A stretch of DNA of 64,000 nt, taken from Amoebophrya sp. A120 (Eukaryota; Protista; Dinoflagellata). The notes under the pieces were generated by a model. That model saw only the letters and a program-made list of their open reading frames with translations. It did not search any database and was not told where the DNA came from. Below, in pieces: positions 3,682 through 55,700 of the stretch. Positions within the stretch are counted from its first letter, which is position 1, and every line of letters begins with the position of its first letter. A program made the position numbers and the translations under genes. The DNA lies in assembly GCA_905178155.1 (NCBI GenBank), contig CAJINV010000011.1, positions 1,201,982 to 1,265,981 of the forward strand, written 5' to 3'.

Positions 3682-6600
3682 ATGAATCTGTTACTGTTCT
3701 GGCACAGTGAGATCACCAAGGAGGAGGTGAAGGGGCATAATATGTACACGGTGGAAATCGACCCCACAGATTACAGGTACTTACTGCTTTTGCGAAGATT
3801 GCATGAGGAACAATTTTGGACATGATTTAATTATGTACGTACAAGTAGATGCTTTCATACTGCTCTGCATGGCAGGATGACAGATGAACAAGTGGGATGT
3901 CGTACAACCTCAATATGAAGCAAGAAATGCAAAATCGAAAAATCAAGAAAAACATTAAAAAAAACACACATCCAGGTTTACCCACATTTTCGAAGTCCTA
4001 AACCTTTCTGGCTTCGTCGACCAGGTGGTGAAAGTTGGCATTGTCAACGGCAACACGGGGCTCGGCGAGGTCGAGTGGATCACGTACCCAAGGAATGACT
4101 TGCTCCGTCAGAAACTGGAAACGGGCGACGTGAAGTACCCCGTTTGCCTCCACGTCACCTCCGTGAGCCCGGAGGAGCTGCAGCCCCAGGAAAAAATCCA
4201 ACCCGGGGAAGAGGAGATTGACGCAAAGCAGTTGTTGAGCACAAGGGGAATCGGACGGGAGCAGGACGATGATAGTTATCTGCCCTATGTGTTGGAAAAC
4301 CGAAAAACGCTGATCTGCAAGCGGGTCGGCCCCAGCTACGGTCGCCGGGAGCCGCAGTTCGATCTGGACGGGTTTCTCGCGGCCAAATCGGAACAGGACG
4401 GGGAGCCGCCAAACAAGAGGTCAAGGTCCAACAGCCTGGCCAGTAATACCCCGCAGATGTCACCCGTGAAATACTCGGGGGACAAGAAGCTCGTGCACTT
4501 TATCCAGAGGTACTAGCCATAGCCGCTATGTTCCTCTTTGAGTTTTTTGCTTTTACTTTTGTTTTGATGTTCACTTGGTAATGTTAGCCAGTGCCAGTGA
4601 CATCAGTTTCAATAGCCATCGATCTACTTGTGAGCGAATGCATTAATAGTTACTTGCGCCACATCTACATCAGGCGACAATTCCGTTTGTTATTTGAAAA
4701 TCAATTTTCCCCATCTAAAATCCACTACAGACTCCGTGTCAAGCTGAAATTCACGCCCGAGCAGCTGTACCAGGGCCATGAAATGCAGCTTACGCGAAAA
4801 ACCTTCTTTATGGAGCTGTCAGGTTTGAAATCGTCAAAGTTGAAATAGTTTGCCATGCATAAAATGCAACGCAGAAAGTGTCTGTCTTGCAGAGTAGGCA
4901 AGGGGGGCAGATTGTAAGCCTGTTTTGAGGTAGAAATAAAGCTGCTGAAGTAGCATGACAAAAGGCGACTTCCTTACCCAAACAGCACGACAGACTGGAT
5001 TTCGGATCTACCCAAATTTGTCATGCGCCACTTGGCAACGGGGTTGCAACTTTCATCCATTTTCTGCATTACAAGTTATTTCAACTTTGTCGATTTCAAT
5101 CCTGACACATCCATATTCTTTACCCGCGGCGAACTCGCCCTGGGCCACACCGGTCGTTAGCATACAGAAGGGTGAATTTCCAGTGAACAATTTGTATTGC
5201 GTGGCATGATGCATGGATTAATCTTCAGGTGCATGCGAAGAACTAGAACACGAGGACAACATACAAGAAGCCAGCGCGCCGCGTTGATGGGCTGCTTGGC
5301 TGGTGGCGCTTCCCTCCTGTGGACGCTTGCCGCTTGTTGCCCAAAGAGGCGCACCTGGTGGACTGCGAAGCAACGCAGGTGGCTTAGGGCGGTCTTACAA
5401 CACGACGCTGCATGATCCGCAGACTCGATAGTGGCGGATCGACCGGGACGAGGGCTATGCCTGTAAAGGGGGTCAAAGGTACTAGCTCAACATGTCAAAA
5501 TAGAGAAGTCGCGTCACGGGTTGTGGCTGCCTCGGCTTGGATATCTGGAGACAGGTTGCTACGGATGCTAGCATCGCCTGCTTTGCTTTGTAAGTAACCT
5601 CCTCCCAGCTGTGTTCCTGCCTCATCTTGGTCGGTTCCTCTAGTAGTCTTCTTTGACGTGACCCCCAGGTCAGGAATTCTCTTGGTGAATTTTGAGGCTT
5701 TGTCTTTTTGCGAAACTTTTTTGAAGCCCCAAACTCGGAGTCTCTCACGCGCTAGCGAATTTTGAACAGGCACCGGAACCCAAAATTCACCGGCGCCCTT
5801 TTCAAAATTCACCCGAAAATTCACCGAGCGCCCCTTTTCGACCGTGATAAGCAAACTTTGGCGCAGAAAAGTGCTCAAAAATGTGCACAGGTAGGCCCTG
5901 GGGAGTGGGGCCGAGGGGAAAAGACAAGCGCCCTCTGTTGCCCTCAGCCCGTCTATATTCTGCCGAAAAGGCCTGGGGAGTTCACGCGCCTGCCGGGTAG
6001 AGGCGTCAAAGCTCTCGGCCTGGTCCTTTCACTCGTTTTTTTGCGCCTTCTTCCCTAATTGCATGTGCTTCGCAGCCTTTCTTTTTAGCGTCTTTGCCGC
6101 GGCTGCTGCAGTGCTCTATGCGAGCACAGGGAGACGAATAGACATGGCCAAAGAACGGCACCCAGGCCATGCCTAGAAGCTGCCCGCCGCATAATAAATT
6201 AAGCCTTGACTTCTGCGGTGTGCAGAACCCACTTCCCAGAAGGGCAAGAGGGATAATGCCCCGGCGGACTCATCTGCAATCTGTCATGCAAAATTCACTA
6301 CAAATTCGCCACTTCTCATGCTAACGGGTGTTAAAGCTGTAACTTCTTTACCCGCGGCGAACTCGCCCTGGGCCACACCGCCCCGGCACCGCATATCCTG
6401 AGTAAAAACGTACCCACACCAGAGTTGTAATGCAGATTTGCAAAGACAGCAAGACTTGTAATGCGCATCCGCATGAGAGCCATTTCCAATCGTGATGTGG
6501 GATTTGTGATGCTGTGAACAGGATGAGCAGATGAATCTGTGATGCGGCTGCACTTGCTAACCTGCACTACACTGCAGAGCGCAATTTGTCATGCGTGACT

Positions 6601-8500
6601 CACAAAGCTCCTAGGTTTGTGTTGCAAAATCCCCATCCTGACTCTGGTGTGGGTACGTTTTTACTCAGGATACCGCAGCCAATTTTGTCACCCTCGCAGA
6701 TTGCGCTCGGATCTCCCGAAATGCCACTCTCGCCGCTGATGCGACAGACGCAGGTGAAGGAGAGGAAAGAGGGCATCAACTACGTTTTCTTCAAGGTATA
6801 GGGATCAGTACAACTTTTTTTTGTGCGGCTAGTAATGCGCATCCGTCTCCTGCCATCTAAGGCGTAAGCGGAGCGCACGCTGCATTTATATGACTTTTTT
6901 CAACTACCAAGGAATGTGACCACCCAGGCAGGACGAGCGTAAGCTAGTGTCATGTTGATCATCGCAAACCAATCTTTGTCTTTATGCAACGAAACCCCAC
7001 AACAGGGCGCCGCGCTCCCGAAGCTTCCGGACGGCGTGACAGAGGACAACGACCCGCTCCGGACTCGTCTCTTCTACGTGGAAGACCCCATCCTTTCCGG
7101 CGACCTCTCCGGCAACGACGGGCCGAGCAATCTCGTGAGCAGCGAGGCCAGCGGAGACGACGGCAAGCAGCTCCCCGGCCTGGGCAAGATCTACGTGAAT
7201 GAGAAGGGGGAGAAGATCTACCCGGACGTTCCCGAGAACACGAAGATCCAGGTGCAGTCGAAAAAGGGCGAGGAAACGACCCGCGTCGTGATTCCCGGCA
7301 CGCCCGAGCTGACCGCCGTCCCCGGCGGCAAGAAGGGCAAGGGGGCGAGCCCACACATTTTGAAGCCCCCACCCGCGAAATTGTCCAAGCCCGTGCCGAA
7401 GGCCGAGGCGATGGCGGCGAGCAAGAGGGAAACTTCCGGCAGTCCGGAGCCCAACAAGGAACGAAAATCTGGGCGAAAATCCTCCATGCGACTCGGGAAA
7501 GCGCCGTTGTGGGACGTGCACCCGAATATCGACGTGATTCTCTGCTGTCCACGACCAAAAACGCTGGACAAAATCTTCGCGCAACTCGCAAACTTCGGCG
7601 TCAGGCGAATTTTTGTCGTGGGCGCCGCGAAGAAGGTATTGGGTGGTTCTTTATGTATAGCAAGTACATCATCTGCATCTGTATGTGATGTCCAGTAGCT
7701 GTGTATACTTGTTCATCGATCCCAGTCATACACTGCGTATCGCTTCCAGCACCTCGTTTCGACGAGGAAAGCTATCATGGTCCTCATCATTTTTTCATGC
7801 TCGAGAATAGAACAAGTTTAAGATGAAATTCAAATTATCCAAACCGATTCCTCCATCACAACAGGTCGAGCCGTCCTATTTCAGCAACACGAAAAAACTG
7901 TCCCCCGAGAACATCGAAAGAGCGCTTCTCGAGGGTCTGTCCCAGTCCGCGTATTACACCCGGATGCCGATGGTCCGGGTGTTGCCGAAACTCAGCATCA
8001 CGGAATTGTTGAAGTCCGGGTTCGGCATCAACAGCAAGATCTCACCCAAGATCGAGAAGAACCGCGGCCCGGAGCTCCCGCCGGACCCGACGGACAAGTC
8101 GACGCAACTCACCTTCGCGAACCACGAGGAAGCTTTCAGCGACGTGATGACCAGTGCCCAGATGGAGGAAACGACGATGTTCGCAGTTCGGGGGAAGACT
8201 TGTGCGAACAACTACCAGTACGGGAGTCTCAACCTAGTCGCGCACCCGTCCTCCACTTCCAGGAAAATCTCCGACATCATCTGCGACGACACCTACGCCG
8301 CGTTTCGGGGCGGGTTCTTGGGGAAAAGAGCCTACAACCGCATTGTGCTCTGCATCGGACCGGAGGGCGGCTGGACGGACCACGAGCTGGAACACGAATT
8401 AACCGCGTTCGAACAGGTGTCGCTCGGGCCCCGGGTCTTGAAGACGTCGGACGCCACGCAAAGTGTGTTGACCTTGCTGTACGAAGAGCTCGGGATCTAG
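3682..8500 (+). CDS. RsmE-like SPOUT RNA methyltransferase with long insertions; exons approx. 3682-3776, 3976-4509, 4674-4808, 5121-5152, 6381-6393, 6678-6795, 7006-7635, 7865-8500
   Basis: N-terminus MNLLLF...THIFEVL...VKVGIVNG (PUA-like). Central ILCCPRPKTL...FGVRRI...KVEPSYF...LEGLSQ. C-terminal IGPEGGW and SLGPRVLK are RsmE signatures. Four GT-AG and three non-canonical introns give one open frame. Confidence 0.8.
4809..5115. mobile_element. TIR introner, family A (307 bp)
   Basis: TATGGAGCTGTCAGG...CCTGACACATCCATA with ~39-bp imperfect TIR and TSD TTCTT (4804-4808/5116-5120). Removal gives RKTFFTRGE. Confidence 0.9.
5153..6343. mobile_element. ~1.2-kb TIR-bearing insertion flanked by a 37-bp direct repeat
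   Basis: Imperfect TIR CGTTAGCAT..GAAG..GAATTT..AGTGAA at ~5155 and its reverse complement ending ~6326. Direct repeat at 5116-5152 and 6344-6380. Confidence 0.75.
6394..6672. mobile_element. TIR introner (279 bp) with a perfect 32-bp TIR
   Basis: TATCCTGAGTAAAAACGTACCCACACCAGAGT and its exact reverse complement at 6641-6672; TSD CCGCA. Removal gives APAPQPILS. Confidence 0.93.
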
Positions 8501-16354: not shown

Positions 16355-17175
16355 GTATGCTGCTGTCGACATACGCAAAATATGAGCATATTGTAGCTTC
16401 CTTTTGACTCGGTCGTTCTCATGTTCGGAAGTCAAGAGCATGAATATGAACAAGGACGACCCATTCGATGAGCATCTGGACGAACTTACACGTTGTGTTT
16501 GTTGAGAAGAGCGAAGCAGAATCAAAAGACACGCACGAAGCGCCACAGGAGGCAAAGCTGTGCCTTTCTCCTCGTCCTCGCATGTTGGAGACAAGTACTC
16601 GTCAAACAAGTACTCTGTTGAGTGTTCAGGTTGTGCAGCTGTAGATCTGGTTGCGATTCGAGAGAGCATTCCGTCTTGTTATACGTCCATCGAATTCTGA
16701 CTTTCTATACACGAATGACGTTGCATTTCGCACGGGCTCGTCGGATCTTCGCCAGGAGATCGATGCTTTCAATCGACGTCCAAGAATGATCACTGATTAC
16801 CGCGGTCATCTTCTCGTCTCCTGCTGTTGTGTCAACATGCCAATGAAGCTCGAGGTCGGACTCGGACCGCCGCGTTCGTTAGAAGAAAGGCCTTTAGTAT
16901 TGTCAGAAGGGCATTCGAGTAGTTACGATAATGTCCCGTTGAAACATCAAGACCGTGAAATTATTGCCCGTATAGGTGCCTTAAGACAGACCATTTTTTC
17001 CACATCTCACGCCTCTGTGCTCCGGCACCCGAACAGATTTGGGAGTTCATTTGTCCAGTGCTTCACGTCTCTTGGCACCACTGATTGTATTAATCGACGC
17101 GACGCATGCACAGACTTTCGCTTGCTGCGTGTCTCCCCCCGGCGGATCCGCGATTGGCGCAGCGCAAGTTGCTAG

Positions 17176-20100
17176 ATGCAGGAGGCATCCTCGTCGTCTA
17201 CCGCTGCGGAGGAGCAGCTGCTTTTGCTTCCACCGTCGGAATCAACGGGCTCAGTAACTACTGAAAAGAGCGAGGAGTGTGACGGGACGACGACGAGTGT
17301 GAATTCCTCAGAACATCAAGCGTGTGAAGAGTCTGTGGAAGAACGCAAGGCAGCGAAATCGGCTACTAGTAGTAGTAGTACGAGTAGGTCGAGCAGTACA
17401 ACTGCCACTGGGGCTCTCTCTTCATCTTCCGCTACTAGCAATACAACATCTTACGGAAGTTTCGCGCGACGGCCTAGTACACGGGCCGCGTCAGGCAGCG
17501 GGAAATCTTCAAGTAGACCGCGTCGTGAGCCCTTCAAAATAGTGCTGGATCAGTCTCTGTATCTTCCAAGGCACGGCCCTCGTTCGGGAGCAGACTCATC
17601 ACGCGACGCCAGGAGAGCTTCATCAGCGCAAATACACATACCAGAAACAACGCCAAAAGAGCAGGACCGGCATCCGGACCAACATATTCCAGGAGATAAA
17701 AGCACGTTTCCCAAAGTCCGCATCAGCACGGCTTCGTCGCCGGTCTCGTCGACCTCACCCGGAGACGCGACGAGACATAATCTTTCGAGTCGGAAAAAGT
17801 CCTCTTCGCTCCGCTTTCAACCACGGTCTAGGGGATTCACGGCCGAAACGGTGACGTCTGAAGAAGAGCAGGCCGGGAATTCCGGACGCCGGGAGGCTGT
17901 TCCGGGGTCGAACTCACGGCACGACCATCCGGAGCCCGACCTCATTGGGGCGAGCAAAAGTTTTGAGCGGGTGGGGGGAGACACCGGGGTTTTATCTGCA
18001 GTCAAGGAAGAAGTCGTGGTAGCTACGAGGTCGGTGAAATCAACACTGCACAGCTACACGGGCGGCGAACAAAACTCTAGAACCGTTGGCCAAGAACTTC
18101 CTGCGAGCTACCCATCTGCTTCCGTCATCATGTTCGACGCACAGGCGCAGCCGGGGATTCTCACCTCCGATATGGCCTCGTCAACACCGAATATGGTGAA
18201 TCAAGGACCGCTCCTTGTCGCCATACTGAGTGTGTTCATTTTTTGCTTCAACAGCGAGCTACTCCAGGACCTGTCGAGTGAGGTGTCACCCCTCTGCAAT
18301 CTTTGTTGCGCACACATGAGCGGATTGTTGTTTTTCCCGTGGACGAAATGGGCATCGAAATGGAGGAACCGGAATATGCGTTGGCAAAGACCTGGCGGTG
18401 GTGACCACGAGGACACAGCGGGTAGTTCTCCCGTTCCCATTCCGTCACCCGGTGGAGCAGGGCCCGCCCCTTCTCAGGCCGGTGATTCGCAGCAGCAGCG
18501 CCCAGGTGCTGGTGTTGGTTTGCAAGTATCACCAGAACGGGCGACGCATTTGGAGGCTGCTGGGTTACCAAAGCTTCGCGCCGGCGGTTCATCTGGACAG
18601 CACAGCGCGAACAACAAATCGCTGCAAAATAATCATGCTGGAGAACAAGGACATCAGCAGAATCAGCAATATCTTGACTCGCTCTACTCGGATCAGGAGG
18701 AAGAGTCGTCGGTTTCACCGGGCGATTTGTCCCCATCGAGGAAGCGGGGCGATGTGTTCTCAAAATCGGATGTTAAGTTTTGGCAGAAGGCGGCGTTTTT
18801 CTCCATTCTGATCATGAGCTACAACTGGTGCTTTTTGAAAGCGATGGACACGCTGCTCGTGAACACTATGTATGGATCTGTTAGGATTGAAATTGACAAA
18901 GTCGAAAGATTTGTGATGCACAAAATCGATGCCAGTTGGAGCCTCAGTTTCCAAGTGGTGCATGACAAATTTCGGCAGCACCAAGATCCAGTCTGTCATG
19001 CTGTTTGAGCAAAGAACGCTGCTCCTGTTATGCTACTCTGGCAGCACAAGCACATCGCCTTCGCCTAAACAGGCTTGCAATCGGTCTCATATGCCTCCTC
19101 CCCAACGCAGGCCATGCGTGCCCTACATTTTATGCATTACAAATTTTTCGATTTCGTCGATTTCGATCCTGGCACTCCCATAAACACGGTCACGGCTCTC
19201 TACCAGGTGAACGTCGCACTGTGCGGCATTTTATGCATTGCAAAAGTATCGTACTCGTAGTAATTGGAGTCATGCATTACAAATTGCCTTCCCAAGGTAA
19301 AACAGCATGACAAATTTGATTTCTCATGCTGAGCAAATTTGCCATGCGATTTATACTAGTACGATACTTTCGCAAGGCATACATTTTCGAGTACACCCGC
19401 GGACAGGGGTGTACGACGTTCAAGATCAGCGGCACGGTGTTGTGTATGCTAGGTGCAGCGATCGTAGCCTTGTTTTCGCCCACGCGCGGCACCCCCGGCG
19501 ACGATCCGGACGAGGGACCGCGCGGCCACGTCGCGGCCGCCCTGGTGGGATCCTCGTCCGGCACGGGCGTTGCTGCGCACTTCGGGCCGACGGCGGCGGG
19601 CATTGGGTTTAGCATAATGGCCGCAGTTATCCTGTGCAAAAGTATCGTACTCGTAGTAATTGCATTTCTGCATTACAAATCTCTTTCTCAAGGACAAGGT
19701 AAATCAGGAGCATTATAAATTCAATTTGTAATGCTGGGGGAATTTGTAGTGCAATTCCAATTTATATATACTAGTGCGATGCTCGTGCATTGCATAGCAG
19801 TCGGGGCGGCTACTTACGCGTGTCTGCTGGTGGAAATGGTCGGGGTGGAAAAGGTGCGACTTTTTCAGAAAACGATGGTGTAGTTCGTGCTGAATTTAGA
19901 AGAACGGATGATTTCTATTTGTTCTCTTTGGTTATATGTATCAGCCTATTCATCTTCCTTTTCCACAGGCCCGCAACCCCGCCGCCTTCTGTGTGAACTT
20001 TGGTTTTGCGATCAGCTTTTGTCATTTGGTTCTCGTCGTGCCCTTTCTCTTCTTTGCCGACTGGATGCACTGGGAAGAGCTGCGACTCCCGCCCAATCTC

Positions 20101-24700: not shown

Positions 24701-27700
24701 AATTTATTTTAACCGATAAAGATAATTTGGTGCCGGACTACACAAACACGCGCGTACAGCTGCAGCAACGATTTTTGGGCGGCAAGACACACATGAGCTT
24801 GTTTAAAGGGATGTCGTCATCGTCGTCTGCAGGTTCTAGTGCAATTGCAATTACATCCTCGGTTGTACAGACGGAGATGATGAGCAATCAAGAGCACCAA
24901 TTTGTCCTCGCTCAAAACAACACTTTTGCACGTCTATCAAAATAAAAAATCCCCCCTCCCCATATCGAACAGGAAATTTGTGATGCTGGATTTGCGTACA
25001 CAAATCAGATTTGTCTTGCTGGAGAGGACTGCAGGCCCACATCAAGCCTGAGTACAGAGGTTTTGGCCTAGGCGCTTAGCATGAGAAACGTCTGCGCTGT
25101 AGGCCCAACAGCATCACAGACCGCTTGTATAATACGGCGAAGCCTGTGGAATTGCCTTCTTGCAAGACAGACGTGATTTGTGGTCGCAAATCAGCATTGC
25201 AAATTTTCTGCGCCGTACCTTTTCGATATGGGGAGGGGGGATTTTTCCTTACGATAACGTCCCGACGTGGATCATGCGTCCAGCATCCAGCACCTGGACG
25301 CCGAACATCAAATAAATCTTCGGTCTGGCGTCTCTATTTTCGGACCTGCAGAACGTATGAGGTCCTCAGATGTGAAGTTTCCAATTTTTCCAAAAAAAAA
25401 ACTATCGATGCATAAATAACTATGTAGTTCAGTAGCTAGCTAAGGTGGAGCGGTTTCAAGGTCTCCGGCTGCGTCTCGTAACGGCGATCCGGCATCTCGG
25501 CGAAGCAGGAGCTGGCCATTTGTATGGAGTTTTGAAAATCCTAGTGAGCGAGCATTGAAAAAGCAAATGTCTGATGTGGTTCCCTAATACATGACTCCAG
25601 TAGTAGCGGTCTGATGCACAATCGTCGACGAGATCGGAGAAATCTAAGCTCTACACGGCTCTTACGGGGCACAAATAGGGGTCCTGGAAAAAGGTTGCTC
25701 ACAAATGTCTAGGATCAGTATCTGATGGCGCCGCTCGCTCGATGTGCTCTACGAATACGACCCGCCACGGCTCTCAGAGTCGGCTCTTTCATGTTGTTTC
25801 GATTTACGATATTCCGATCAGGCTTGCACGTAAATTTCGAACGATACGCTCAGGTCGATGCTCTTAGTTTCTAGGCAACGAGCGTTCCACATTGCTGCTT
25901 CTTATTCACAAATCCACATTCTCATCAACCACAGGATCCTCGTCTTTGCGCCCATGCTCACCTCCCTCACCGCAGGTCGTACAGAAGCCGAAATAGAGGA
26001 CAAGGACTGTAGCGACGGCTTGGCGACGAGACCGTTCCGAGATACGCAGCCGGAGACCACGCAACCGCCCTACCTGAGCTAGCTAGTTCATGAGATAGAT
26101 ACTAAATTACCTAAAGTAGCTAGTTTTTTTTTTCGATTTTGTTGAAATTTCACATCTGAGGACCTCATAGAACGACTAAACCTTCGGTCCGCCGTCTCTA
26201 CTTTCGGACCGATCCTCCGGTTTCGGTCTGCCGTACTGAGTGGAAAACTTCACAAATACAAATATCTGCAAAAATTGGTCTTTAGAGGCTTCACGGCTGC
26301 TGGGAGGGGGCCCAGGGTCTGCGAAACGCGACGCCGGTGAGTCGAACACCAGCACGGCAACAGCGCGCGGCGTTGTTCTGTCCGGCAAGGTCCGGAGGGT
26401 TTGGCGTCGCTGAAGGCCATACCGGACGACGACGAGCATGCATGTACTTCAAGAACAAAATCGGAAGGCTGTTGCCTTTCCTTTGTGTCGCGTCCGCCGA
26501 TGCGGTTTGTCGTTTAGCCCGTGATTGGAGCAAAAAAACGCTATTCCCACTTGGAAACTTTCCACAAATGAACAGACCCGACCCCTCCGGAGACCCACAA
26601 ATCTGGGGCCCTTCTGAACAGCCAAATTCCCACTTCCCGCTTGGAAACTTTCCACAAATGAAAAGGCAGGGGGGTCCGGCGACCCCTGCCGGAGAGGTCG
26701 CCCGCGAGCATTTTTCTGCGTCATTTTGATGCGATTTCCGCCTTTCGGCGATTCGCCGCGACCTATTACTGCCTCCGCCGGCGCCGCATGGCGCCGGAAT
26801 TCCGGGCACCCTGGCGTGGCCCCGAGAGCCCTAGTCCCGCCCTGCTAAGCGGCCCGCGCTGGTGCGACTTTGGTCGGGTTAAATGGCGACCGCCTGAGAT
26901 GAATGCTCTGGCGCCCCTCCCAAGGATGCCCGACAGGGCCTGAATTGCTGAAAAGCATAACACTGGGCGCCTGTTTCTCTGCAGTTCTGCCTTTTAAGCA
27001 TCAATTTTTGCAGATATTTGTATTTGTGAAGTTTTCCCCTTAGTATGCCGTCTCTATTTTCGGACCGATCCTCCGGTTTTGGAAGGACCAGCGAAGACTC
27101 TATCACTACCATCTCACCTACTTGCAGGAAACTCGAAAGGCCCGCTACGCCGCTACGCTGCAGGAGAAACTCGGCCAGAAACTCGCCTCCACGGACGGGG
27201 CGAAGCGGATGCGACTGCGGTTCGAGAACAATCTGCCCGTCGCGCTCGCCCAACCGAAAATGCGCTCTCCGCTGACGTATCAAATGTAAAAATGTCTGGG
27301 TGGTCTGGAAGAGTGCATTTTTGTCATGCTTGTCTGGCATGACTGTCAAATCTCTCATGCACGTTACCCAAGAGCACCACTTTTCTGTCATGCAGAAACG
27401 CAGTTCGCCATGCAGAATAGGCAACACCTAGAAGCTCAGAAACTTGTGATGCTGAGCCAGCATTTCTGGCCTCATCATGAGACGCCACCCAGCATCACAA
27501 GTTTCCAGACCCAGACATTTTTACATTTGATATGACGCTGTGCGAACTTTGCTGGAAGACCGCGGTGTACAAGGATAAAAAGACGAAGCAGCCGGTTTGC
27601 AGCCAGAACTGCCAAGTGGCGTTGCAACTGTACCGAGACCCCATGGGCCTGGAGAACGACAAGTACGGGGGGAAAGGTGCAAACCAGGCTCTGTGGAAAA

Positions 27701-36200: not shown

Positions 36201-36367
36201 CAGGTCGGCACATTTTTGGCCGGTCTTGAGCGTCCCAGGAAAGTGTTTTACATCTCATTCGAGAGAAAACGCAAGTTCTCCTGCAGCTTGCAGTCGCAAG
36301 CGGTCCACGCCTAGGACAAGGGTCATCTATAGAGTTCTATTCTACGCAGAGAGAGAGATTGTAAAAT
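36201..36367 (+). repeat. Right terminal repeat B2
   Basis: Appears identical to 28397-28563 over 167 bp. Confidence 0.95.
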
Positions 36368-37070
36368 TGCGATATGTTCATGTTGAATATATGCGCCGTG
36401 TAATAGTGACGAACGCCGCGAGTACAACGCGTAGTAGATCTGAAGTCAAAGAAGCACAACTTCGACGAGGCTCCCGCTCCTGGATGGTGCGAGATGACAG
36501 ACGCGATGCACCACCATCGCAAAGAGCCAGAAGGAAAAATGGTCTATATCTGCCTTTACCGGAATCATCCTTGTCGGCTGTTGTATCGTGTCATGTTCAA
36601 CAAGTAGTCGTCCCTGACCCTGGAGTTATAGAGAGACCGTGAGCAAACGCAAACCGCACGCGTTCGGATTTGGAATTGGAAGCTTTAGTTATTTGCATGA
36701 CTGAGTAGAAGAGGTAAAAGTACTTACGTTGCTCGGTGCTTATTTTCCACTACCACACTGCACAGGTAGTCTCCTGCCTCTTTCTTTCATTATGGTTCGT
36801 CTTCGTCTTTTCGTGGTAGCGGTTTTTTGCTTCATCTACATTTTCAAAGAAGCACCCATAGCAATAAACCTCTGGTAAATAAAATTAGCCACGAAGAGGT
36901 GGGCGATCTACGGCCGCATGTAGAAGTTTGTGAAACTGAATGAAATACTGCGAAAGCACTGATGAAAGAATTTAAATTTCCAAGAAGAAATCTAGGACCT
37001 TGTTTGCGGCCTTAGTCGTGTACTTCTACGTGTACCTGATTTTTGTTTTTCAGTTTGTGAAATAAAAATA

Positions 37071-44055: not shown

Positions 44056-45108
44056 CTTTGGCTCCCGCCCTGCTTGCTTCTGTACATCTACAACGAATAC
44101 CAATACTAACAAATACCAGTGGAAATGTTGACAAGAATACAGCAAGCCTGGTTTAGAAGAATGAGCAGCCAGTGTGAGCGGACATGCGCAAGGAGGGATC
44201 GTGCAGTAGAAAAACGAACACAATGAATAACAGTTGTACTTTCCCCGCGTGTGCCTATCATGGACTGCTTTTTGCGTCGTACTCTTTAACATGTATACAA
44301 ATTTTCCCGTTTGTAGCACAAATGACCCAAACTAAAATATAATGAGGCGCCCTCGATGTCGTGGTCTCACGCCCAGCTGGAGACCTAACTCAAACATCAT
44401 GTATGCTTATATATGATATGCAGAAACACCAAAATGCGACGACCTTCTGCTATTATTTACTGTGAGGACTATAGACGAAAAAAAAATAATGTTGATTCGA
44501 TCGTCAGGACTGTTGATTCGATTGATCTCGTCAGTTGTACGATGAGATCAAGAAAAATGAAAACAAAGAACATGAGACCACTCTGCGGCACCAATAAACA
44601 TTGCCGCACCCCCTGTGCCACCCCCAAACCATTTTAACGAAATACGTATAGAGAAGCTGGAAAAATACCCAACAAATAGTACATATGCACACGCAAAATC
44701 AAAAATATGGCCGCGCTCATCACGAAGATTCGTGCTTTCATCGGAGTGACATTTATGTTCGCGTCGTGGTGTTCATCTCAGTACCGGGAGGTTCAACTTC
44801 AAGTACACAAGTGGATCACCTTCGCCGAGCGCGACCACGTTCTCTACTTGTATGTACAAAAAATACGATGATCTTCTCGTTATCGATAAGTATCGACCTG
44901 CTTCCCGACGAGAAAAATCCTGCTTGTCGTACGTTTCTTTTACGCAAAACTGTCGAGCCGTGTACTACCTTCCTTTTCGGGATCATCGCTTTTTTTCTGT
45001 GTAAGTACGACTCCCTGATACAATAATTCCTCGTGTTCCTCAATGTGCCCACGAGTCTTGATAATTATCGATCATTTGCTCTATTCATTCGTTGCGTCCT
45101 TTGTGAGG

Positions 45109-47734
45109 ATGGCCACCACCACAATGAAAGCGAATCGGTCTGCTCTGGTGACGAGAACTCGACCGATGCCTTCTGCGATAGCCACTACACCGTTGCTCCC
45201 GCAACAACCGGGAACAGCGACTTCACGCTGCACTACGAGGTTCTTGTCGTTTTCCCTTTTCTCAACTTCCGCGTCAACATCGTCTTCAGTTCGGACAAGA
45301 ACTCCCAAGGAGAACACATCCCCTTCGCAACATGCCCATGAGCTGCTGCACCGCATGCCGAACTCTACCCGCAACTTTCTACAGTCAAAGTTAAAAGAAG
45401 CAAACCAAAGGAGAAGAGCGATTCTATCCGTCGAGGCAGAAAGGAGGAAACGCCACCTGCGGAGCCTGCATATGCATTGCAAATGTGTCTGGGTCTGGAA
45501 GGTTGCAACTTGTAACGCTGTCTTTGAATTCGAAATCGAATTCCAAGAAAATCTGTATTGCAGGACCAACAACAGGAGTCCAGTTTGTGTATACGCTGAG
45601 AGGGCATTTGTCATGCGGAATAGGCGCGAAGAAGCCCTCTAAAAATCTGTGATGCTAGACCATGCATTACAGGCATCGCGGATCATACAAAATATGCATG
45701 ACAAGCCTGGCAATGTTCCAGACACAGACATATTTGCATTTGATACTGCATCTGACAGAGCAAGAGATCGCTGCGGACGACGCTGTGCACTCACAAATTG
45801 CTGCGTTGATGATGGAAAACGACAATGCAGGAGCTGATGACGGAGATGAGACACGGCCGGATTGTTCCAAGAACATCAACCCTCCTGAGCAAATAAACTA
45901 CGTGAAGAACAGCCACCCGCTCTCACAGTGGCTCACTGTTGCGGATGACCTGCTCCAGAGGTCCGCTACGCTCACAACCGCAGACGCGGTGCTTGCCCTG
46001 CGGTGTTTCTACCACGCCGAAATCGCGGACTCGAATCTGGTGCATGCGCTAGTTGAGGTATTGGTGGTGAGGCTGAAACAGAGCCTGGAACGAGCGGAAA
46101 TGGTCGTGGAAAGAAGTGCTGTAGGTGGTTTAAGAAGTGGGCACGGAAGAGGTACAACAGCGACACCAGGCTCTTATTCTTTCATGGAAATAATGGTGCC
46201 AACATCATGTGGAGATCAGGGCGACACAGAAGATCCTGAAGAATTTCTTGCGGGCGTAGCAGCGGAGTTGGAGAAAGTGGCTGCGTTTGCGAGAGAAGTA
46301 GGAACAACTCAGACGCTCGGAAGTTGTGCTACGGCAAATCAGTTGGACTGCGCAAAGGTTGTAACAGAAGATGAAGGGGCGGCGACTGAACTGACAGACC
46401 GGGATCATGAAAGCAGCGACATCAAAGTAGATCATCATGAGAATGATTTACCTGATCACGCAAAAACTATATCACCTAGTACCAGACTCGCGAACACGGT
46501 GACAGTAACCTTCCTAAGCCCTGCTTGCGCACGTAGACTGCGGCGCACACTAGTAGACTGCGTTAACGCCTTTTTGCGAATCGCATTCCGGACGTTGAGA
46601 CAGAAGCAGGACCGGACTCTTGACAGCGGAGGACGGGGAGCAGCCTTCTCTTCGACGTCGTCCAGGACGAGCGGTGTCAACATAAACGGCGGCTGCACGA
46701 CGACAACCCTTCATCGTTTCACGCTGACAGGTTTTCTGGTTTCGCTTGCGATCGACGATCGTCATTCTTGCAAAGAGTTCTTGTGTACTGAGCGCAGCAA
46801 TCTATCGTCTCTAACGGCCGCCGCACAAATTCCTGACGGGGAGGTAGGCGCTACTCACGTTGAGGGCCTCCAGACGAAGAAAACACACGCGAGGATCTTC
46901 GAACAAGACCAAACCGATCGCAAACGCTCGCAAATCCTCACGGTGCTTTCGACCCAGCACCTGAGCATCCTCCCTCTCCGTGACCTCCTGAGGCTCCAAG
47001 CCCGTGCGGAGCACGATCCGGAACTGAAGTCGCTGTACGAGGCGTCCTGCTCCCGGGAACGGGCCATGCTGTCGGCCATGGGCGTCAGCGAGGTTTTTTC
47101 GCTCCTGTGGCAGGAAACAATAATGAACCAGCTTGTTCTTTCTGAAGAAGATAATTATTCCGAAGCCGAGATGAAGGGCGCGACAGGGCGGACTCTAGCT
47201 GAAGAGGACCCAGGGCCGTTCGCGCGAAAACTGCGGGCAGTGCTGAATTACAAGCTAGCGGCGCTGACCGTGGAAGACATTCGCCGTTTGCCGCAGCGGT
47301 TCCAGATTTTAGAATTGCTGTTACGAACAAGTGAGGAGAAGATGCGAACAAGGCAGGGAGCAAGCACATCATCTACTTCAGGCTGTAGTACCAGCACATC
47401 TGCACACGGAGCAATAAACCTTGCACTGTCGCCAGCGGAGTTTGCCTTCGCTCAGAACCTGGCCACCTACGCTCGACAGAACGTTTCCGCCTGCTCCTCC
47501 AAGGATCTGGCGCTGCTCGGAAAAGCAATGGAGGGGCGAAGCTGCATACCACTCGCGCAGGCTATTCGCCTGCATTTGATGAACCAGTGCAGGAAGGAAG
47601 AACTCAGGTGGACTTCATCTTCAAATTCGAGATCAGGGAGCTCTATTGCCGCTCCTATCAAGAAAACACAGTCTTCTGTTTATTTTCATTCGCCTTTCAG
47701 TACAACTACAACTACACAAGCTGCGTTTGCGTGA
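45109..47734 (+). CDS. Hypothetical helical protein; exons 45109-45470, 45751-47734
   Basis: Two ORFs are joined in frame (RSLHLTEQE) by removing the introner at 45471. Confidence 0.7.
45471..45745. mobile_element. TIR introner, family F (275 bp)
   Basis: TATGCATTGCAAATGTGTCTGGGTCTGGAA...TTCCAGACACAGACATATTTGCATTTGATA; TSD CTGCA. Confidence 0.92.
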
Positions 47735-48021
47735 TTAGCTTGCTACAAACAAGCCGCTACAGATTTTGTGATGGGCTTCGGCATCACCAATAATTGGCTT
47801 CGGCATCACCAATGAGGCTGGATGTTCATCTTCACCTTCTCTTTATTGCTCTACCGCTTTAAAAATACTGGTAAATAAACTACCGTAAACAAATCTATCA
47901 CTCACTGGCAAAATACGACAACCATAAAGTAACGACAAGTCGCCGAAGTCCACTCGAGGCGGAAATTTTTTTATCTCGGAATACCGCAAGTAGAAGTCTA
48001 GGAAGATAGCTGATCACTACC

Positions 48022-48896
48022 ATGCTCGCCCGTAGCAGTGTCTCCCACAGCGGCAAAAAAGTCGCTGTGGTCCTTGCGGGTTGCGGCGTGTACGACGGTA
48101 GCGAGATCCACGAGGCGGTATTCACGCTTAATACCTTGTCGAAGAAGAAAGTTGCGTACCAGTGCTTCGCGCCCAACATCCCGCAGATGCACGTTATCGA
48201 CCACACCAAGGGGGAGCCGATGGAGAAGGAGACAAGGAACGTCCTGGTCGAATCCGCCCGGATAGCACGTGGGAAAATCCAGGACTTGAAGGATCTGAAA
48301 GCAGCCGATTACGACGGTTTGATCTTTCCCGGCGGATTCGGCGCGGCGAAAAACCTGTGCGATCTAGCGGTGAAGGGCCCCGAGGTGACGCTGGAGAAAG
48401 AAGTGGAGCGCGTGGTCAAAGACTTTCACAGCATCGGCAAACCGATGGGGTTCTGCTGCATCGCGCCGGGAATTGCCGCCAAGGCGTTAGGAGAAAGTGC
48501 AGGGGTGGAGGTAACCGTTGGAAGCGAGACGGAATCACCGGACTGGCCGTACATTAAGATTGGCGTCGTGCCCTTCAATGTTTTACAGTGTGATAGTAGA
48601 TGCCGGTGATGCACTTGTCGTTGTCCTCATGTTTTTAATTTTCAACTTTAGCTCTGATATTCCTGTGGCTTTCAGCTAATGCTACTTCCTACGAAACAAA
48701 ACACAGTTACGCCGGCACGGTTGGCGCTATTAAGGCGGTGGGGGCGACGCACGTGGAAAAGCCGCTGAGCGACGCCCACGTGGACACAAAGAACAAAGTG
48801 GTGACATCTCCGGCGTACATGTGCGAGGGCGCGCCGATTCATGAGATTGAAGAAAGCGTTGCTGCGATGGTCACGAAGACCGTAGAGATGATGTGA
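48022..48896 (+). CDS. ES1/ElbB (GATD3-like, DJ-1/PfpI superfamily) protein; exons 48022-48548, 48707-48896
   Basis: [44 protein letters not shown] and VVTSPAYM motifs; GT-AG intron at 48549-48706. Confidence 0.95.
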
Positions 48897-49721
48897 CCTG
48901 AATGTTAAAATGCTGTGATGATCTGGCGCTTCACATCAATCACAATTCATTGCTGCAAACTGCAATGCACGCTTTCGCTTTGACGGGCTTTGGTAAACAG
49001 TTCCAGAGCAAACACAGACTTACGGTAGATTTTGCGAAGGATGCATTTACGCACCATTCTAGTATGACATTGCATTCTGTCTCCGAAGAAAAAAAAGAAA
49101 AACTGCATTTCTATTGGTTTTGCAAGGCTACGAATTCCTACATTGATTTGCTGTGATGGCAATCCTGGAGCTGGAGCTTCTCCTTCTTCTGACAGTTAAA
49201 GCCACGGCACAAAGAACTTTGTCTATGGAACGATCAAGACGAAGATCTCGTCTAGCCCTTGCTTTTCCGAAGATCAACATGCACCGCGACTTATGATCCC
49301 CCGTCACTTTTCATCAGCTTTCCCATTTCTAAGGCGAAGGTCTTGGCCTGTTTCGCGAGGATAAAGTGAACACACAACAAGCGATCCATTTTTTGTAAAA
49401 CTATAGTCCCGCCGCGCCGTTGTACTTCTAGATTACGGCATTGTCAACAAAGACGATCTCCTTTTTGAACTTCATTTTTCGAAGTTTTGCGGTTTATTTT
49501 TTTCAGAGCCAGGCCGCGCGATGAAGTAGACGTAACTAATTTATTTTTCGATGAGTACGACTTCTAGTTCTATCTTAAGAAGTCAAGGTCCAGCCCTTTC
49601 TTTAGACATAAAGAGAAAGAACGTTCTTTACCGTATTTCTAACAGAGACTGAACACACGTACAGCAGTACGTAGTATAATCTTAATCCCCGCCTAGTACC
49701 CTGTTTAATCCCAAAAAACAA

Positions 49722-52700
49722 ATGTTTGACACCATGAGACCTCCCACAGCATCCCGATCACCCACCACGACGAGCGAGATCTTTTTGTACTAAGCAGGAC
49801 GTCGCGTCGTGTGTTGAAAACACGATTTTATTCCCTGGTCATTTTTGAGACCTGAAGACCGCGAGGATCAGACACCGATCTTCACTTCGCCCGTCATGCC
49901 GTCGATCAGCGTGGATTCCATGCGGATCGACGAGATCGAGCAGTCGCTGGAAAAGAACCCGACGCAAACGGCGCTGTGGCTGCGATACGCGAAACACTGG
50001 GAGAACACCGACGAGGTCAACGCGCTTGCCGTGTATAACGATGCGGTCCGGCGTTGCCCGCACGTGGAACTGTGGCGGCAGTACATCGAGTACTGCAAGC
50101 GGTGCGTCACGGTGAAAGGCGTCGTTGCAGTCATGCACGCGGCGATCGACGTGATATCCCACGACCACCGATGCGGGGATTTTTATGCAATGCAAATTTC
50201 CTGTACATGTACAAAATGCATCACAAATTATGTCACAACCAACTTGGAGGATGCCATTTGTCTTGCTGAATAGGATTCAGTGAAAGCTTTGTCATGCAGA
50301 AACCGCATTTGTACGTCGTGTACGGGAAATGTGCTGTGGATAATTTGTTTCAGGAGTACATCGCGCTGCTGAAAGCCGTGTGGAACTACCAGTACAAGTA
50401 CTATGCATTGCAAAAGTATCGTACTAGTATAAATCGCATGACAAATTTCCTCAGCATGACAAATGGAATTTCTCATGCTGGTTTGCCGCAAAACAAAGAT
50501 TTGTAATGCATAACAGCAATGACTACGAGTGCGATACTTTTGCAGTGCATAAGTACCGAGACGAACTGATTCTAGACGACTACGACCCTGCTTTGTTACT
50601 GGGCGACCCAGACGCGGATGCGGCAAAACTGGCGGAAGAGGAAACGGAACTTGCGAACAAGTGCGGCGGGCACATCCCGCTCACGCACGACGAGGACGAG
50701 TCCATTAAGTGGATCGCGAAAAAAGCTCCCTCCGACAGCTACATATCGGTCAAGACGAGGCTGTCCCTGGAGCACATCCGAAGGCTATCGAGACAGGTAC
50801 AGCTACTTGGTATATTCTAATGCTGGATGTAGTTGGGTGTGGACGTTTTTTTATTTCAGATTCCCATTCCATGTTGGAAGTCGTGGAACTTGTTTTACAT
50901 GAACGGAGCAGTTGCTGTTGCAGTCTGCAGAACGTACCATACGCTTATGACCGTAGTGGATGTTGAAGATACTTCGCCATCCTTTTTTTAGTTGCGATAC
51001 AGCACGACCGCGATTCTTGCGACCTGTTCTGACTTGAGAGCATTTTTGACAGGTTGTACTTGTCATGCAATTTTTAATGTCACACGATCTTGTTGCCATA
51101 TTAAAATGACTATCAGGCCTGCACCAGTCCTTCTTCCTGCGTCGACAAGATTGTGAAAGCTTACGAAACGTTCGAGGACAAGCTGATCGGGCACAAACAT
51201 TCCCTCTCCAACACGATGGACAGGGAGGGTGTCGTGAAGGAATTTTACCACAAAATCACCAACGCGAAAAACGTCTACCAGAAACTCGAAAAACTGTACC
51301 AAAACGTCGACACGCTGACCATCCCCCAACCCGAAGTCTCCGTTTTGTCCAAAACCCCCTCGAAATCGACGAACCAACTGCTCAAATGGGCGGAACTACT
51401 GTCCAATTGCGAGCAGATCGTGCAATTTGAGCGCGGGAACCCGTTGAAGCTCGAGGTCGCGGATTACCAAACGCGAGTGATTTTCCTGTACCAAAACATG
51501 CTTCTAATCACCTCCTGCTTTGCCGACTTCTGGTACAGCTTCTACCAGTTTCTCTACACCTTTTCTCCGGTGAAAGCCTTGCAGGTTTTGAAAATCGCCT
51601 GCGAGAAACTCCCCAACGATTTGTTCCTGCGGTTGAGTTACATCACCAATTTCGAGGAGCTGATCTACAAGAAGCACTTCAACGCGACGTTGCTCGGCGA
51701 TGTGATGAACAGCCAAGCAAGCACTTCCGGCTCTTATCAAATGCAAATATGTCTAGGTCAGGAAGATTGCTGAGGTTTGTGATGCTGTGTCTGCTTGACA
51801 CAGAAGGTGTGCCATGCAAGGCTTAGCATCACAGGTTTTGAGACGGTTTTCCAATGCCTAATCCGCATGACAAATGCCTTCTTTCGGCGACAGGAAAAAG
51901 AGCTTCATCTTTTGCTGTCCAAGCATGACAGATTTTTGTGTGGTCTAAGTATGCATCACAAGTTCGCATCCTTACACAAGACCCAGACATATTTGCAATC
52001 AATAGCTCTCTCCATGAAGCGATCTTCGACATTGAGAATTCGCCGGAATATGCGACGCTGTTGAAAGATATGGATTTGGTGCTGCAGAAAACGGCGAAGC
52101 AGAAAAATAATCCCGACGATCCGGACAAAATCGAGTTTGATTTTGACGAGGAGGATCCGGAAATCGAGATCCCCCACACCTCGAAGTTCCGCCAAGGGAG
52201 CAGCAAGGAGCAGAAATACAAACTCGTTTTCACGTTGTACGAGAAACTTTTGCAAGAGCCGTTCTTCGAGGGGGAGCAGTACGCGCTGGTCATCATCCAT
52301 TTTTTGAATTTCATCCGTCGCCAAGCGGGTCCCGACCAGTGGCGGGATTATTTGTTGAAAAAAGTCTTCATCAACAACCACCAAAAGTTGACCTGGGAAG
52401 TGTACGCCAGTCAGGCGTTGGTGGAATACCACTGCTTCGGGGAGAGGGATCGCTGTGCGCAGATTTACAAAATCGGTATTAAACAACTTCTTCGTCTTGG
52501 TATTGCTATTGGATCATGACGGCTAGTTCTTCTGTTATTGATGCTGATCAACATGAGATTTTGCTTTTATTTTTGCAGACCTACACTAACGCTGGAAATT
52601 GATGCAGTTTCGGTTTCCAGCAAATTAAAACCTCACGAATTCTTCTATACAGCCCTAGACCGCTTCCGCACGGTGGAGACTTTTGAGCCGTCTTTAGTTG

Positions 52701-55700
52701 CGTCCTTCGTCAACTTTCTGATTTCGGTCAACGATTTAGCCGCCGCCCGGGACGAACTTACCCTGGCCATGCAGAAGTGCTACAAACTCCTCCGCGAGAT
52801 TCAGCACAAATCCGACAACCGAAACCAGAAGGACAAGCGGGTCCAAACCGAGAAGCAGAAACTGGGGCAGGGCTTTAAGTTTCTCTTTGAGAAATTGATC
52901 CGATTACAGCAGTATCAAATGCAAATATGTCTGAGTCAGGAAGATGTCATGCTGTTTTTGCATGACGCAGAAGGTCTGGCATGGAAGCCGTAGCATCACA
53001 GGTTTCGAGAAGGTTTCGCAATGCCTAATCCGCATGACAAATCCCGCACTTCGGTGACAGGAAGTGGACATCTTTTGCTGCCTATGCATGAGAGATTTGC
53101 GTGTGTTGTGAAATGCGCATCACAAGTTCACATCCTTCCAGACCCTGACATATTTGCAGTGCATAAGCAGTCCTACGGCGACGACCAAGATTCCTTTACG
53201 AAGATTCTGTATGCACTGCAAAAGTAACGCACTAGTATGAATCGCATCACAGATTTGCTCAGCATGTGCATGATATAAATTGAGTTTGTAATGCTGATTA
53301 GCGTAGTAGAGATGTAGATCTGTCATGCATGAATGCGATTCGTACGAGTGCGATGCTGTTGCAGTGCATAGTCTGCAGCAAAAAAACCAGTTTCTCCTCG
53401 AGTCGGTCCCCGACGTGGCGCTGGTGCAAGCGGAGAGCTTAGTCGGCGACCATATTCTGTCTGACGCGCACGAGGACGCGGCGATCAACGCGTTTTTGAA
53501 CGACACCCTGACGACCATGCTGCACGTCAGCGGCGATCCGACCGACCCGGCAGCTGGTAGGATTTTTTATAAGTACTTGTCTTCTGGATGTGGTCGTTCT
53601 TGTTCTTCGCTCTGCCGTGTGTAGAAGTCTCGAAAGAGAGGAAGTAGTTCCTCTGTCTCTATGTGACATTGACATTCTGCAGCTCCAGGATATAAATTTC
53701 TAACGTCGAAAAAACATCACTATCAGCCTTCGAGGACGAATTCCAGCAATTTCAGCAGCAACAGCAGCAGCAACAACAGGGTGGAAAGAAGGGACGGGGG
53801 AAGCGGCAAAAGGGAAAGACGTTGTCCCACTACGACATGCGGGACGCGTTTCACAGCGACAAAATCATCCACACCTACCACCTCGACCAGGACTACAACC
53901 GACCCAACTTCTTGCGCGCGAACCTGCTCAGCTCCATACTGCAGCCGGGTGCGAACAGTTTCTTCTCCTGCAGCTCCGTGCTCCCCTTCGCCGAGGCGCA
54001 AAGCAGGTATGTTGTGATATACAATGAATCACGACTTCCTCTACTGACAATTATGAAGACACTATGTTTATGCAGCTACGTCGGAGAGCGGCGGCGCCGC
54101 CGTGTGAAGATGGTGCGTGTCAATGTTTATAACAACTCAAGAAAATCAAATTTTCCTTTATCCGCCATAGGTTCAAGTTCCAACACCTGACCCCCAACAC
54201 CAACAAACTGAACCCAGTCGCGTCGAAGAATTTTGACAAGTACAAGAAAGCCACCGACGCCCAGGAGGAGAAAGAAAAGGAGAAGGAAAAGCAGGAGCAG
54301 CGGAATAACCGAGGCAGAAACAGGAACAACAAACACAACGACCGCAATAATAATAACCAGGGTGCTGGCGGCGGCGGGCTCCTCACGGTCGGCCAGGTTC
54401 GGAGCAAATCCGGCTCTTTCGCCGAGGACGCAGAAAATTCGAAGGAGGTTGTTTCGAGCAAGGCCGCCGCGAAGACAACTGCAGCTGGGAATAAAACCAC
54501 AGGAAATAATCTGCTAAACAAGGAGGGCTCAGCTGCATCCGGCGCGGAAGGTGAACAGGATCAGGATCAGATTGCGCTGATGGTGAAGCAACGCATGTTG
54601 GCACAGTTTGAGGACAGCGATGACGACTTGATGCAGGGAATCAACTTTCGGGACGAGGAAGTAGACGTAAACACCGCCACGAAGAAAAAGCCCGCTGCGG
54701 CCCCGAAAAACCGCGTAACCCGACCGGACACGGCGCGGATGCACGCGTTTAACCCCATGAACGCGGTGCAGATTGCTTCGGCGGGACAGAACCTGGGCCA
54801 AGTGTCGAACATTTTGCCGAAGGTCTTGCTGGACCTCCAGCAAATGCTACCGAAGCACAAGGTTTGTCATTCTCTACTTGCTTTTTAGTTTTTTATTCAT
54901 TCTGCGTTTGCGTATACGCTTTTGCTTATGCTAGAAGATGCCTCTTGGTCTTGAAGGTGGTAGATTTATTGGAGAGTGAGTAGATGAAGTACAAGACACA
55001 GTCGCAGATTGACTATATACTTTTTTTTGTTCCTGCTCGACAAAAACCCGCTTTTTTTCCTATCGCGACCCACATACTATCAAAAAGAAATGTCCTCCAC
55101 ACCTAACCTCACAGCAGGTGCTGAAGGGATCAGCCCCGGACGTGGACTACATCATGAGCGTACTGCAGACGGTTGAGGTTCCCGAGCTTCCCCTCGACCA
55201 GTTCTGCAAGGCGCAACCGGACCCGGGCAGCGGGTTGGGCGGCCGAAGCAAGGACGCCGGGTTTATGGGCGGCCTCGGCGGCGGCTTGTTCGGCGGCGCG
55301 GGCGCGCGGGTCACGTCCCTGGACGAAAACACCGGGATGATGCACGCCGTCGGTGGCTCCGTACACAACTTTTTGATCGAAGGCGCGGTGGATGAAAGCA
55401 GGTTGGATTTGATCTTGATTTCGCAGCTGTTTTATATTTTCTTCTACTGGATATAGATGCTCATGGTGTAGTCTGTAGTCGCAGCTGCATGCAGCTCCAT
55501 GACATGTTGACACATGTGTGGCGCTTGTGCTTTCACGAAGATTTCTGCATGGTGTAAAACAATAGACCCGGCGGCGTGGTCCCAATCGCTCATGTATTGA
55601 TATGGTCAACATATGAACACCAGGTACCGAATACGCGGGGCCGGCACGGGGCAATCCGCTGCGCTGCGCGAGCCCCGTCGGGTGAAAAAGGCTCCCGGCG

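Follow-up and report, generated by a model that had tools for sequence, protein, structure and literature searches.

The genes in the 64,000-nucleotide stretch of Amoebophrya sp. A120 analysed here (the window; contig CAJINV010000011.1, positions 1,201,982 to 1,265,981) are split by GT-AG introns as well as by short elements that carry terminal inverted repeats (TIRs), and the question raised by this locus is why one short word should recur in elements that otherwise look dissimilar. The first-pass annotation had noticed the word GCAT[GCT]ACA and ascribed it either to a common transposase or to a factor that marks these introns for removal. We delimited 16 elements in the window, 14 by a search for TAT…ATA termini with flanking repeats and two by eye (18867-19182 and 26234-27045), which were then checked. 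On both strands of the window the word occurs 52 times, compared with 5.99±2.20 times in 100 shuffles (largest 12), and 47 of these matches lie inside the 16 elements (rate ratio 111, binomial p 1.6e-46). Fourteen elements carry two to five copies each, where the shuffle mean is at most 0.15 per element, and two (25356-26169 and 26234-27045) carry none. The recurrence is therefore real and stronger than had been proposed, and the 111-fold enrichment in the elements does not match a background frequency. An unseeded k-mer count puts the three 8-mers named at the time near the top of its enrichment list. The five matches outside the elements amount to the chance level, in keeping with the impression that the word is rare elsewhere in the window; two of them (6282 and 51061) fall in other element-like sequence. 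The word had also seemed not obvious in two families lettered D and E, which agrees with the two motif-free elements if these are what the letters, left without definition, stand for. An iterated weight matrix extended the motif to 11 bp, GCATBACARAT, with 71 sites in the elements and 19 weaker or scattered ones outside. The motif is thus longer than first stated, and the range of 6394 to 53370 given for it was too narrow, since the motif-bearing elements 4809-5115 and 59211-59515 lie beyond it. Occurrence in both directions holds for most elements but not for 6394-6672, in which all six sites are on one strand.

We extended the analysis to other loci. A scan with the terminal pattern of one family returned 130 loci, and the 78 with names shown were all contigs of assembly JACKZZ01. 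We analysed 75 of the 78 long ones (656,742 bp, with no overlap with the window), leaving out three overlapping and 52 short loci; because one family's terminal pattern was used for retrieval, these loci are enriched for that family by design. The element finder called 409 elements in the 656,742 bp and none in 324,537 shuffled bases. With the matrix trained on the window, 406 of the 409 elements contain at least one motif site and 383 at least two; two of the three site-free elements hold sites just below the cut-off, and one of 521 bp has none. The 409 elements form 13 multi-copy families with about six types of TIR, and eight of these families are not represented in the window. The motif is enriched in the elements 14-fold relative to all other sequence and 33-fold once family-like fragments are masked. 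After masking, the remainder of the loci still holds 140 clustered and 99 lone sites, compared with 28-36 expected from shuffling, so decayed elements or other sites must exist. A generic TIR search around 52 site clusters outside the called elements found TA-ended elements in some of them and no clear second type of terminus. We conclude that the motif is real and general in this type of genome.

The spacing of the sites is constrained. Of 76 pairs of same-strand sites in the window, 21 are separated by 30-34 bp, where 3.0 are expected (p <0.001); the excess persists when each family is represented by one element and when the choice of the band is taken into account. In the eight families absent from the window, 5.3 of 21.9 pairs fall in the same band versus 0.9 expected, a value reached by the null in 5 of 1,000 draws. 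The recurrent same-strand spacing is 31-33 bp, and four evenly spaced sites (31-35 bp) are found in L064:1598-1753, L045:7812-7962, L050:9249-9360 and L052:16572-16680. Tandem duplication of a 32-bp unit was considered as the source of the spacing and rejected, the identity of the spacers being 0.28. The sites are also positioned relative to the element ends. At 18 family ends the outermost of the outward-facing sites begins at a distance of 30-32, 39-42 or 50-53 bp from the end, and the steps between these classes equal one turn of the DNA helix (R=0.84 at 10.5 bp, p 5e-5, n=18; p 1e-4 for 14 class-distance pairs). Of 818 ends, 144 have a motif-like sequence immediately after the terminal TAT, and 131 of these belong to the 454 ends of the two largest families; in L064:1598-1753, with sites at 4, 35, 67 and 98, the first directly follows the terminal TAT.

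Sequence conservation singles out the same positions. Motif columns were defined from a third copy, which replaced a biased design in which one of the compared copies served this purpose. By this measure, identity is 0.85 in motif columns, 0.72 in the other interior and 0.66 at the degenerate fifth base, and motifs are more conserved than their flanks in 13 of 13 families. Private changes affect 131 of 5,180 core motif bases (0.025) and 1,565 of 20,477 bases elsewhere (0.076). Within the TIR, identity is 0.99 at positions 1-3, 0.67 at 4-8 and 0.85 at 9-25, so that the motif repeated near both ends is conserved like the TIR. TIR positions 1-3 and 9-20 at one end pair with those at the other, but positions 4-8 are variable and often do not. 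Once the motifs are masked and the ends trimmed off, the scores of 72 of 78 pairs of families stay within those of shuffles, and only one pair is clearly related. Some families have TIR types and short patches in common. Shared ancestry of the families is therefore likely from their sequences, but without selection it leaves the motif unexplained. That common descent alone accounts for the motif is contradicted by its conservation within families and by the failure of masked families to align.

What reads such a motif? The word is conserved within families, common to families that do not align once masked, and phased with the helix and with the end, all of which points to a shared predicted binding site. 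A strand-blind, conserved, helix- and end-phased word is what a protein complex assembling on double-stranded ends would select. We favour, at slightly better than even chances, the reading that GCATBACARAT forms subterminal double-stranded DNA binding sites of one shared putative transposase that mobilises all families in trans; here we infer the binding, the protein and the function in mobility. Several protein subunits would bind motif sites that share a face of the helix, and would thereby bring the TAT end into place for cleavage, as in Tn7-like ends or the subterminal repeats of MITEs, the miniature transposable elements with inverted repeats. Tn7 produces a 5-bp target-site duplication (TSD). 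Copies retaining the array would go on transposing, which would explain the conservation of the motif across families with diverged TIRs and interiors. Removal from RNA would depend not on the motif but on the terminal stem or the TAT…ATA ends. Judging only from the termini and the TSD length, the enzyme might be an integrase-type DDE protein. The elements have the anatomy expected of transposons, with TIRs, an exact 5-bp duplication of unbiased sequence and many dispersed copies, as seen from DNA contigs that run off at element ends and from the 13 multi-copy families of the other loci; no coding capacity was found in them. An exact 5-bp repeat flanks 274 of 366 copies found without a TSD filter, and none is longer (0 of 366 with an exact 6 bp). 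All 26 family ends carry TAT, 18-24 of the 26 have A at positions 11-14, and 393 of the 409 elements end TAT…ATA; TGT occurs at only 6 of 582 element ends, each opposite a TAT end.

Several observations weigh against a single shared transposase. The binding site proposed by the first-pass annotation stands as a shared predicted site and a common transposase is its likeliest reader, but no such protein was found: Pfam matched no transposase in 86 reading frames drawn both from long elements and from stretches without annotation, nor in 142 of the 389 long frames of the other loci, chosen by composition. An autonomous, transposase-coding partner with the same motif was likewise not found in the window or in the 657 kb of other loci, which is less than 1% of the ~115-Mb genome. 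The covered parts of Farhat et al. 2021 (PMC7789003) report no transposase in A120 and rule out general mobilisation by transposase. The phasing has weak points as well. Two families lack a same-strand pair at 30-34 bp (0/17 and 0/5), a 16.2-bp period fits all distances slightly better than one of 10.4 bp, phasing is not significant where the first site faces inward (n=8, p 0.17), and the end-phasing test is a post hoc one that treats families that are related. The other 11 of the 13 families have no terminal motif. The lone sites outside elements stand at about three times the shuffled level, and CACAAAT, the 3' part of the motif, is found three and five times in the two motif-free elements. 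The test of older copies for neutral decay after insertion was underpowered (excess 0.009 in the core and 0.013 elsewhere). Finally, TIR positions 9-25 are conserved and yet differ among about six classes, and therefore class-specific transposases together with a shared accessory protein fit equally well.

In this last alternative, which we consider rather unlikely overall, a host or accessory DNA-bending protein, in a role like that of IHF, would bind the motif, and family-specific transposases would read TIR positions 9-30. One motif common to about six TIR classes is what it predicts, the end-phasing fits it equally, and the threefold excess of lone sites outside elements could reflect such a protein; the layout of the TIR, with an invariant TAT, variable positions 4-8 and conserved positions 9-25, resembles Tn7-like ends as described in parts of PMC10201428. 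However, two families and L064:1598-1753 carry the motif at the very terminus, where a transposase site would be, elements hold three to six copies instead of one, and the count outside elements in the window is at the chance level.

The other function proposed at the outset, a mark for intron removal, has to be judged from the transcripts. We used the RNA-like contigs X1-X4, which come from one sample and whose RNA status is a guess; the same contigs skip GT-AG introns exactly. The raw RNA runs X8 and X9 placed a single read each on 45000-60000, too little to be informative. Of the 16 window elements, all but 4809 and 6394 were compared with RNA-like contigs, and thirteen are skipped as the element plus 5 nt, nine by direct joints and four by length arithmetic: seven in 17000-28000, to which X1 adds two direct junctions and the four by arithmetic. 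The skipped elements lack GT-AG ends, and removal takes the element together with one TSD copy. In element 59211..59515 the two TSD copies have different third bases, and the one retained in the RNA-like contig is that of the left copy (59206-59520), which places the 5' cut after base three of the left TSD. Precise skipping extends to both elements that lack the full motif, with 819 nt removed in one of four runs and 817 nt in three of four. Gene strand was inferred from codon usage for 303 of the 409 elements, neighbours agreeing in 186 of 191 cases. Within genes, families occur in either orientation; the one whose sites are all on a single strand divides 7:7 with respect to the inferred gene strand, and among elements with sites in one direction 24 have sense-only and 37 antisense-only sites. 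An RNA-level splice mark is therefore unlikely, because motif-free elements are removed and families with one-strand motifs occur in both orientations, and at the RNA level the corresponding half of the first-pass proposal is not supported.

A mark at the DNA level is better placed, though in our estimation quite improbable. A DNA-bound factor would read the motif in chromatin and mark the element for co-transcriptional removal, replacing the missing U1 small nuclear RNA (snRNA), which was not detected in A25 or A120 according to the parts of PMC7789003 covered. The motif is nearly universal in these introns, and a DNA site would be blind to orientation. Such a mark keeps some probability because the motif-free elements retain phased CACAAAT half-sites, in pairs spaced 30 and 33 bp, where only 0.12 and 0.09 half-sites are expected in the two elements (p 0.002 each). 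On the other hand, the full motif is dispensable for precise removal, one 521-bp element, a putative intron, lacks any site, and the core accumulates private changes near the rate of TSD decay, at 0.025-0.035 compared with the 0.026-0.052 implied by that decay (0.052 per site between two copies). The terminal TA changes less, with 13 private changes in 1,164 bases (0.011; p 6e-4 against the core), and because of this difference the ends, not the motif, appear to be the target of selection after insertion; this suggests, weakly, that the element ends then outweigh the motif in importance. As a check on an RNA hairpin, G·U and A·C mismatches of the terminal stem were counted on the inferred sense strand; they are balanced at positions 9-20 (114:115), and the imbalance at positions 9-25 (227:182, p 0.03) is driven by position 21.

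The two weakest explanations can be dealt with briefly. A role for the motif in RNA, as a splicing enhancer or as a pairing partner in an intron hairpin, is very improbable and already largely refuted: most elements carry it in both orientations, which could pair, and GCATG overlaps what we take to be the RBFOX element, but the strand counts given above (7:7, 24 and 37), the degenerate fifth base, the splicing of motif-free elements and the fact that pairing would not need identical sequence across families all speak against it. We give hardly any credence to a functionless relic of common descent, also largely refuted, since shared TIR types and patches make ancestry likely but the motif is conserved above its flanks in all 13 families around a neutral wobble base, spacing is kept where spacer sequence is not, and masked interiors do not align. 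The reverse motif also resembles a Sox-Oct composite site, and GCATG resembles RBFOX and ApiAP2 elements, likenesses that we presume to be coincidental.

How do these elements relate to known systems? Judged by sequence, the anatomy of the window elements matches that of the introners of A120 (compare PMC7789003, covered in part). The parts of Farhat et al. covered describe inverted repeats that start TAT-N7-AAA with short direct repeats at the borders, and divide the elements into 1,954 families; the non-canonical introns of Amoebophrya number in the tens of thousands. As in the covered parts of PMC7789003 and PMC12130899, the elements here are removed without GT-AG ends, measure ~150-320 bp and form many families. 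Farhat et al. give repeats of 3-5 nt at variable position, whereas we find a fixed 5-bp TSD directly outside TAT…ATA, and in two families here TAT-N7-AAA consists of TAT and an adjoining internal-motif copy. The covered parts of these two papers mention neither an internal motif held in common nor a rule of spacing or end-phasing, and no internal motif is described in those of PMC11282704, PMC9860276, PMC12005148 or PMC6004678. Neither the motif nor its spacing was reported in what our literature searches returned, with published figures and authors' sequence files outside their scope. In the 50 of 58 A120 rows covered, Gozashti et al. 2025 (PMC12130899) class most families as TIR DNA elements of unknown superfamily; their family 38 (808-810 bp, TIR 49-53, 'Ginger, 5-bp TSD, TA/TA termini') resembles the two motif-free elements in size and ends, a comparison by description only.

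The nearest eukaryotic parallel is offered by MITEs. In the covered parts of PMC1636448, the Emigrant/Lemi1 MITEs have subterminal repeats bound by transposase, and cases from hAT, CACTA and Tc1/mariner are cited. These too are non-autonomous TIR elements with internal motifs repeated in either orientation near the ends, but there the motif belongs to the family's own TIR and the transposase is known, whereas here one motif spans about six TIR types and fills the element. Tn7-like and CRISPR-associated transposon (CAST) ends, in the covered parts of PMC10201428, consist of a terminal dinucleotide, a spacer of ~8 bp and the first binding site, and share with our elements invariant terminal bases, a short variable spacer and site arrays that follow the helical pitch. 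They are prokaryotic, with TG…CA termini and asymmetric ends, unlike the eukaryotic TA…TA elements that serve as introns here, and the analogy is architectural only. Among integrase-type DNA transposons, whose termini and TSDs are given in parts of PMC10045372, PMC6839031, PMC2836005 and PMC12730594, IS3EU/GingerRoot (PMC10045372) has the TA…TA termini found here but usually a 6-bp TSD, which is absent from our 366 copies. Ginger2/TDD (PMC2836005, in part) makes a 4- or 5-bp TSD (5 bp in TDD-4 and TDD-5), as here, but has TGTNR termini, which our elements do not. TAT ends combined with a 5-bp TSD fit neither group fully. Paired motifs were also seen in 74 stretches of viral contigs, two of which have a weak TIR/TSD call spanning the match. 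L197 proved to be a protein-coding repeat.

The window is eukaryotic, and its genes on the plus strand include those for ribosomal protein S6e, a HAT-repeat protein, an RNA methyltransferase and Tsr1. The 16 elements total 4,997 bp; 15 have TAT…ATA termini and one TAC…GTA, and a 5-bp TSD flanks all of them, exact in 13 and with one mismatch in three. In what follows, signs after site positions give the strand. Two elements of the ~305-bp family flank the set: 4809..5115 (TSD TTCTT; sites 4848-, 4880-, 4953+, 4985+, 5016-, 5066+) and 59211..59515 (TSD TTCTC/TTATC; sites 59250-, 59282-, 59355+, 59387+, 59418-, 59475+), the latter an introner whose 310 nt are skipped by an X1 contig joining 59208 to 59519. 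A reversed member at 18867..19182 (TSD AACAC; sites 18909-, 18960+, 18991-, 19134+) is an introner with 321 nt skipped in four of four runs. Adjoining element 4809 is a motif-bearing element of ~1.2 kb with approximate bounds 5153..6341, its left end apparently lost and its right end …GCTGTA (sites 5190-, 6279-, 6311-). Identical 37-nt direct repeats stand on either side of it (5116-5152 and 6344-6380), a relative occurs at L057:236-927 (81% over 704 nt), and its reading frames have no Pfam match. The TAT…ATA element 6394..6672 (TSD CCGCA), which has 18 relatives in the other loci, carries its six minus-strand sites at 6423, 6454, 6502, 6535, 6584 and 6615, spaced 31/48/33/49/31.

The ~150-bp family contributes introners at 19232..19381 (TSD CATTT; sites 19235+ at the terminus, 19274+, 19305+, 19319-, 19337-; 155 nt skipped in three of four runs) and 19628..19796 (TSD GCAGT; sites 19670+, 19710+, 19724-, 19742-; 174 nt, four of four), and two more whose removal follows from length arithmetic, 50402..50551 (TSD AGTAC; sites 50405+ at the terminus, 50436+, 50454+, 50468-, 50499-), where 179 DNA contigs run off at the left end, and 53210..53370 (TSD TTCTG/GTCTG; sites 53244+, 53284-, 53318-). 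The introner 50184..50342 clusters with this family (TSD ATTTT/ATTTG; sites 50187+ at the terminus, 50218+, 50256-, 50287-), with removal of the element plus 5 nt by length arithmetic on one X1 contig. To the ~260-bp family belong the introners 27278..27532 (TSD TGACG; sites 27319-, 27350-, 27383-, 27442-, 27492+; 260 nt skipped in four of four runs), 51735..52004 (TSD GCTCT; sites 51775-, 51826+, 51865+, 51923+, 51953+; an X1 contig joins 51729 to 52005, skipping 275 nt) and 52913..53165 (TSD AGCAG; sites 52945-, an 8-mer match, 52993+, 53032+, 53086+, 53117+ and 53152- at the terminus; removal by length arithmetic). A further TAT…ATA element of this family is 45471..45745 (TSD CTGCA; sites 45474+ at the terminus, 45508-, 45551-, 45606-, 45645-, 45664+, 45696+), where 91 DNA contigs run off at the left end and no bridging RNA contig is listed. 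An introner of the ~321-bp family lies at 24935..25256 (TSD ACGTC), with site pairs 24976-/25009-, 25079+/25111+ and 25162+/25194+ spaced 33/32/32 and 327 nt skipped in two of four runs.

The two introners without the full motif are 25356..26169 (814 bp, TSD GAACG), with three CACAAAT half-sites of which two are 30 bp apart, and the TAC…GTA element 26234..27045 (812 bp, TSD TGCCG), with five half-sites of which two are 33 bp apart. They had no relatives among the 130 fetched loci. Both lie, within 25319-27070, inside a short repeated exonic stretch of three similar ~30-nt copies in the same WW-domain gene, and their size and ends match the published A120 families 38 and 196. Of five GT-AG introns checked one has a motif site. 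The GT-AG intron 50797-51116 carries a single strong site (51058, minus strand) ~33 nt inside a …GCCATA end; this canonical intron may contain a decayed introner or may itself have arisen from one.

Three other features of the window were recorded. A retroelement-like unit at 28119-36370 has direct repeats that are split (173 nt at 28394/36198 and 140 nt at 28119/28561), together with long open reading frames at 28728, 30537, 32062 and 33661. Pfam and PDB sequence searches gave no match for it; words that by eye we take to be reverse-transcriptase-, RNase H- and tyrosine-recombinase-like suggest a DIRS/Ngaro type. At 42690-43190, units of ~24 nt form a palindromic, satellite-like array whose inverted arms are long; it has no match to the 8-mer motif. 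The intergenic stretch 56300-58300 is GC-rich (63-74%), has single-copy depth in DNA run X5 and contains a 637-codon stop-free frame on the minus strand with no Pfam match.

Introners and subterminal repeats were already known; what appears to be new is one motif across unrelated TIR types together with its helical and end phasing. A single conserved motif with a spacing rule unifies the families and argues for one protein-driven DNA mechanism. The motif provides a defined bait for the putative protein and a signature for autonomous partners, and it distinguishes the candidate signal for mobility, which is the internal array, from the candidate for removal, which is the TAT…ATA ends. A bolder version, which strikes us as a long shot, is that one protein reads a helix-phased code in virtually all introner families, mobilises them and hands their ends to the U1-less spliceosome during transcription. 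If this were true, insertion and intron definition would be one system, and the harmlessness of thousands of exonic insertions, in either orientation, would be accounted for.

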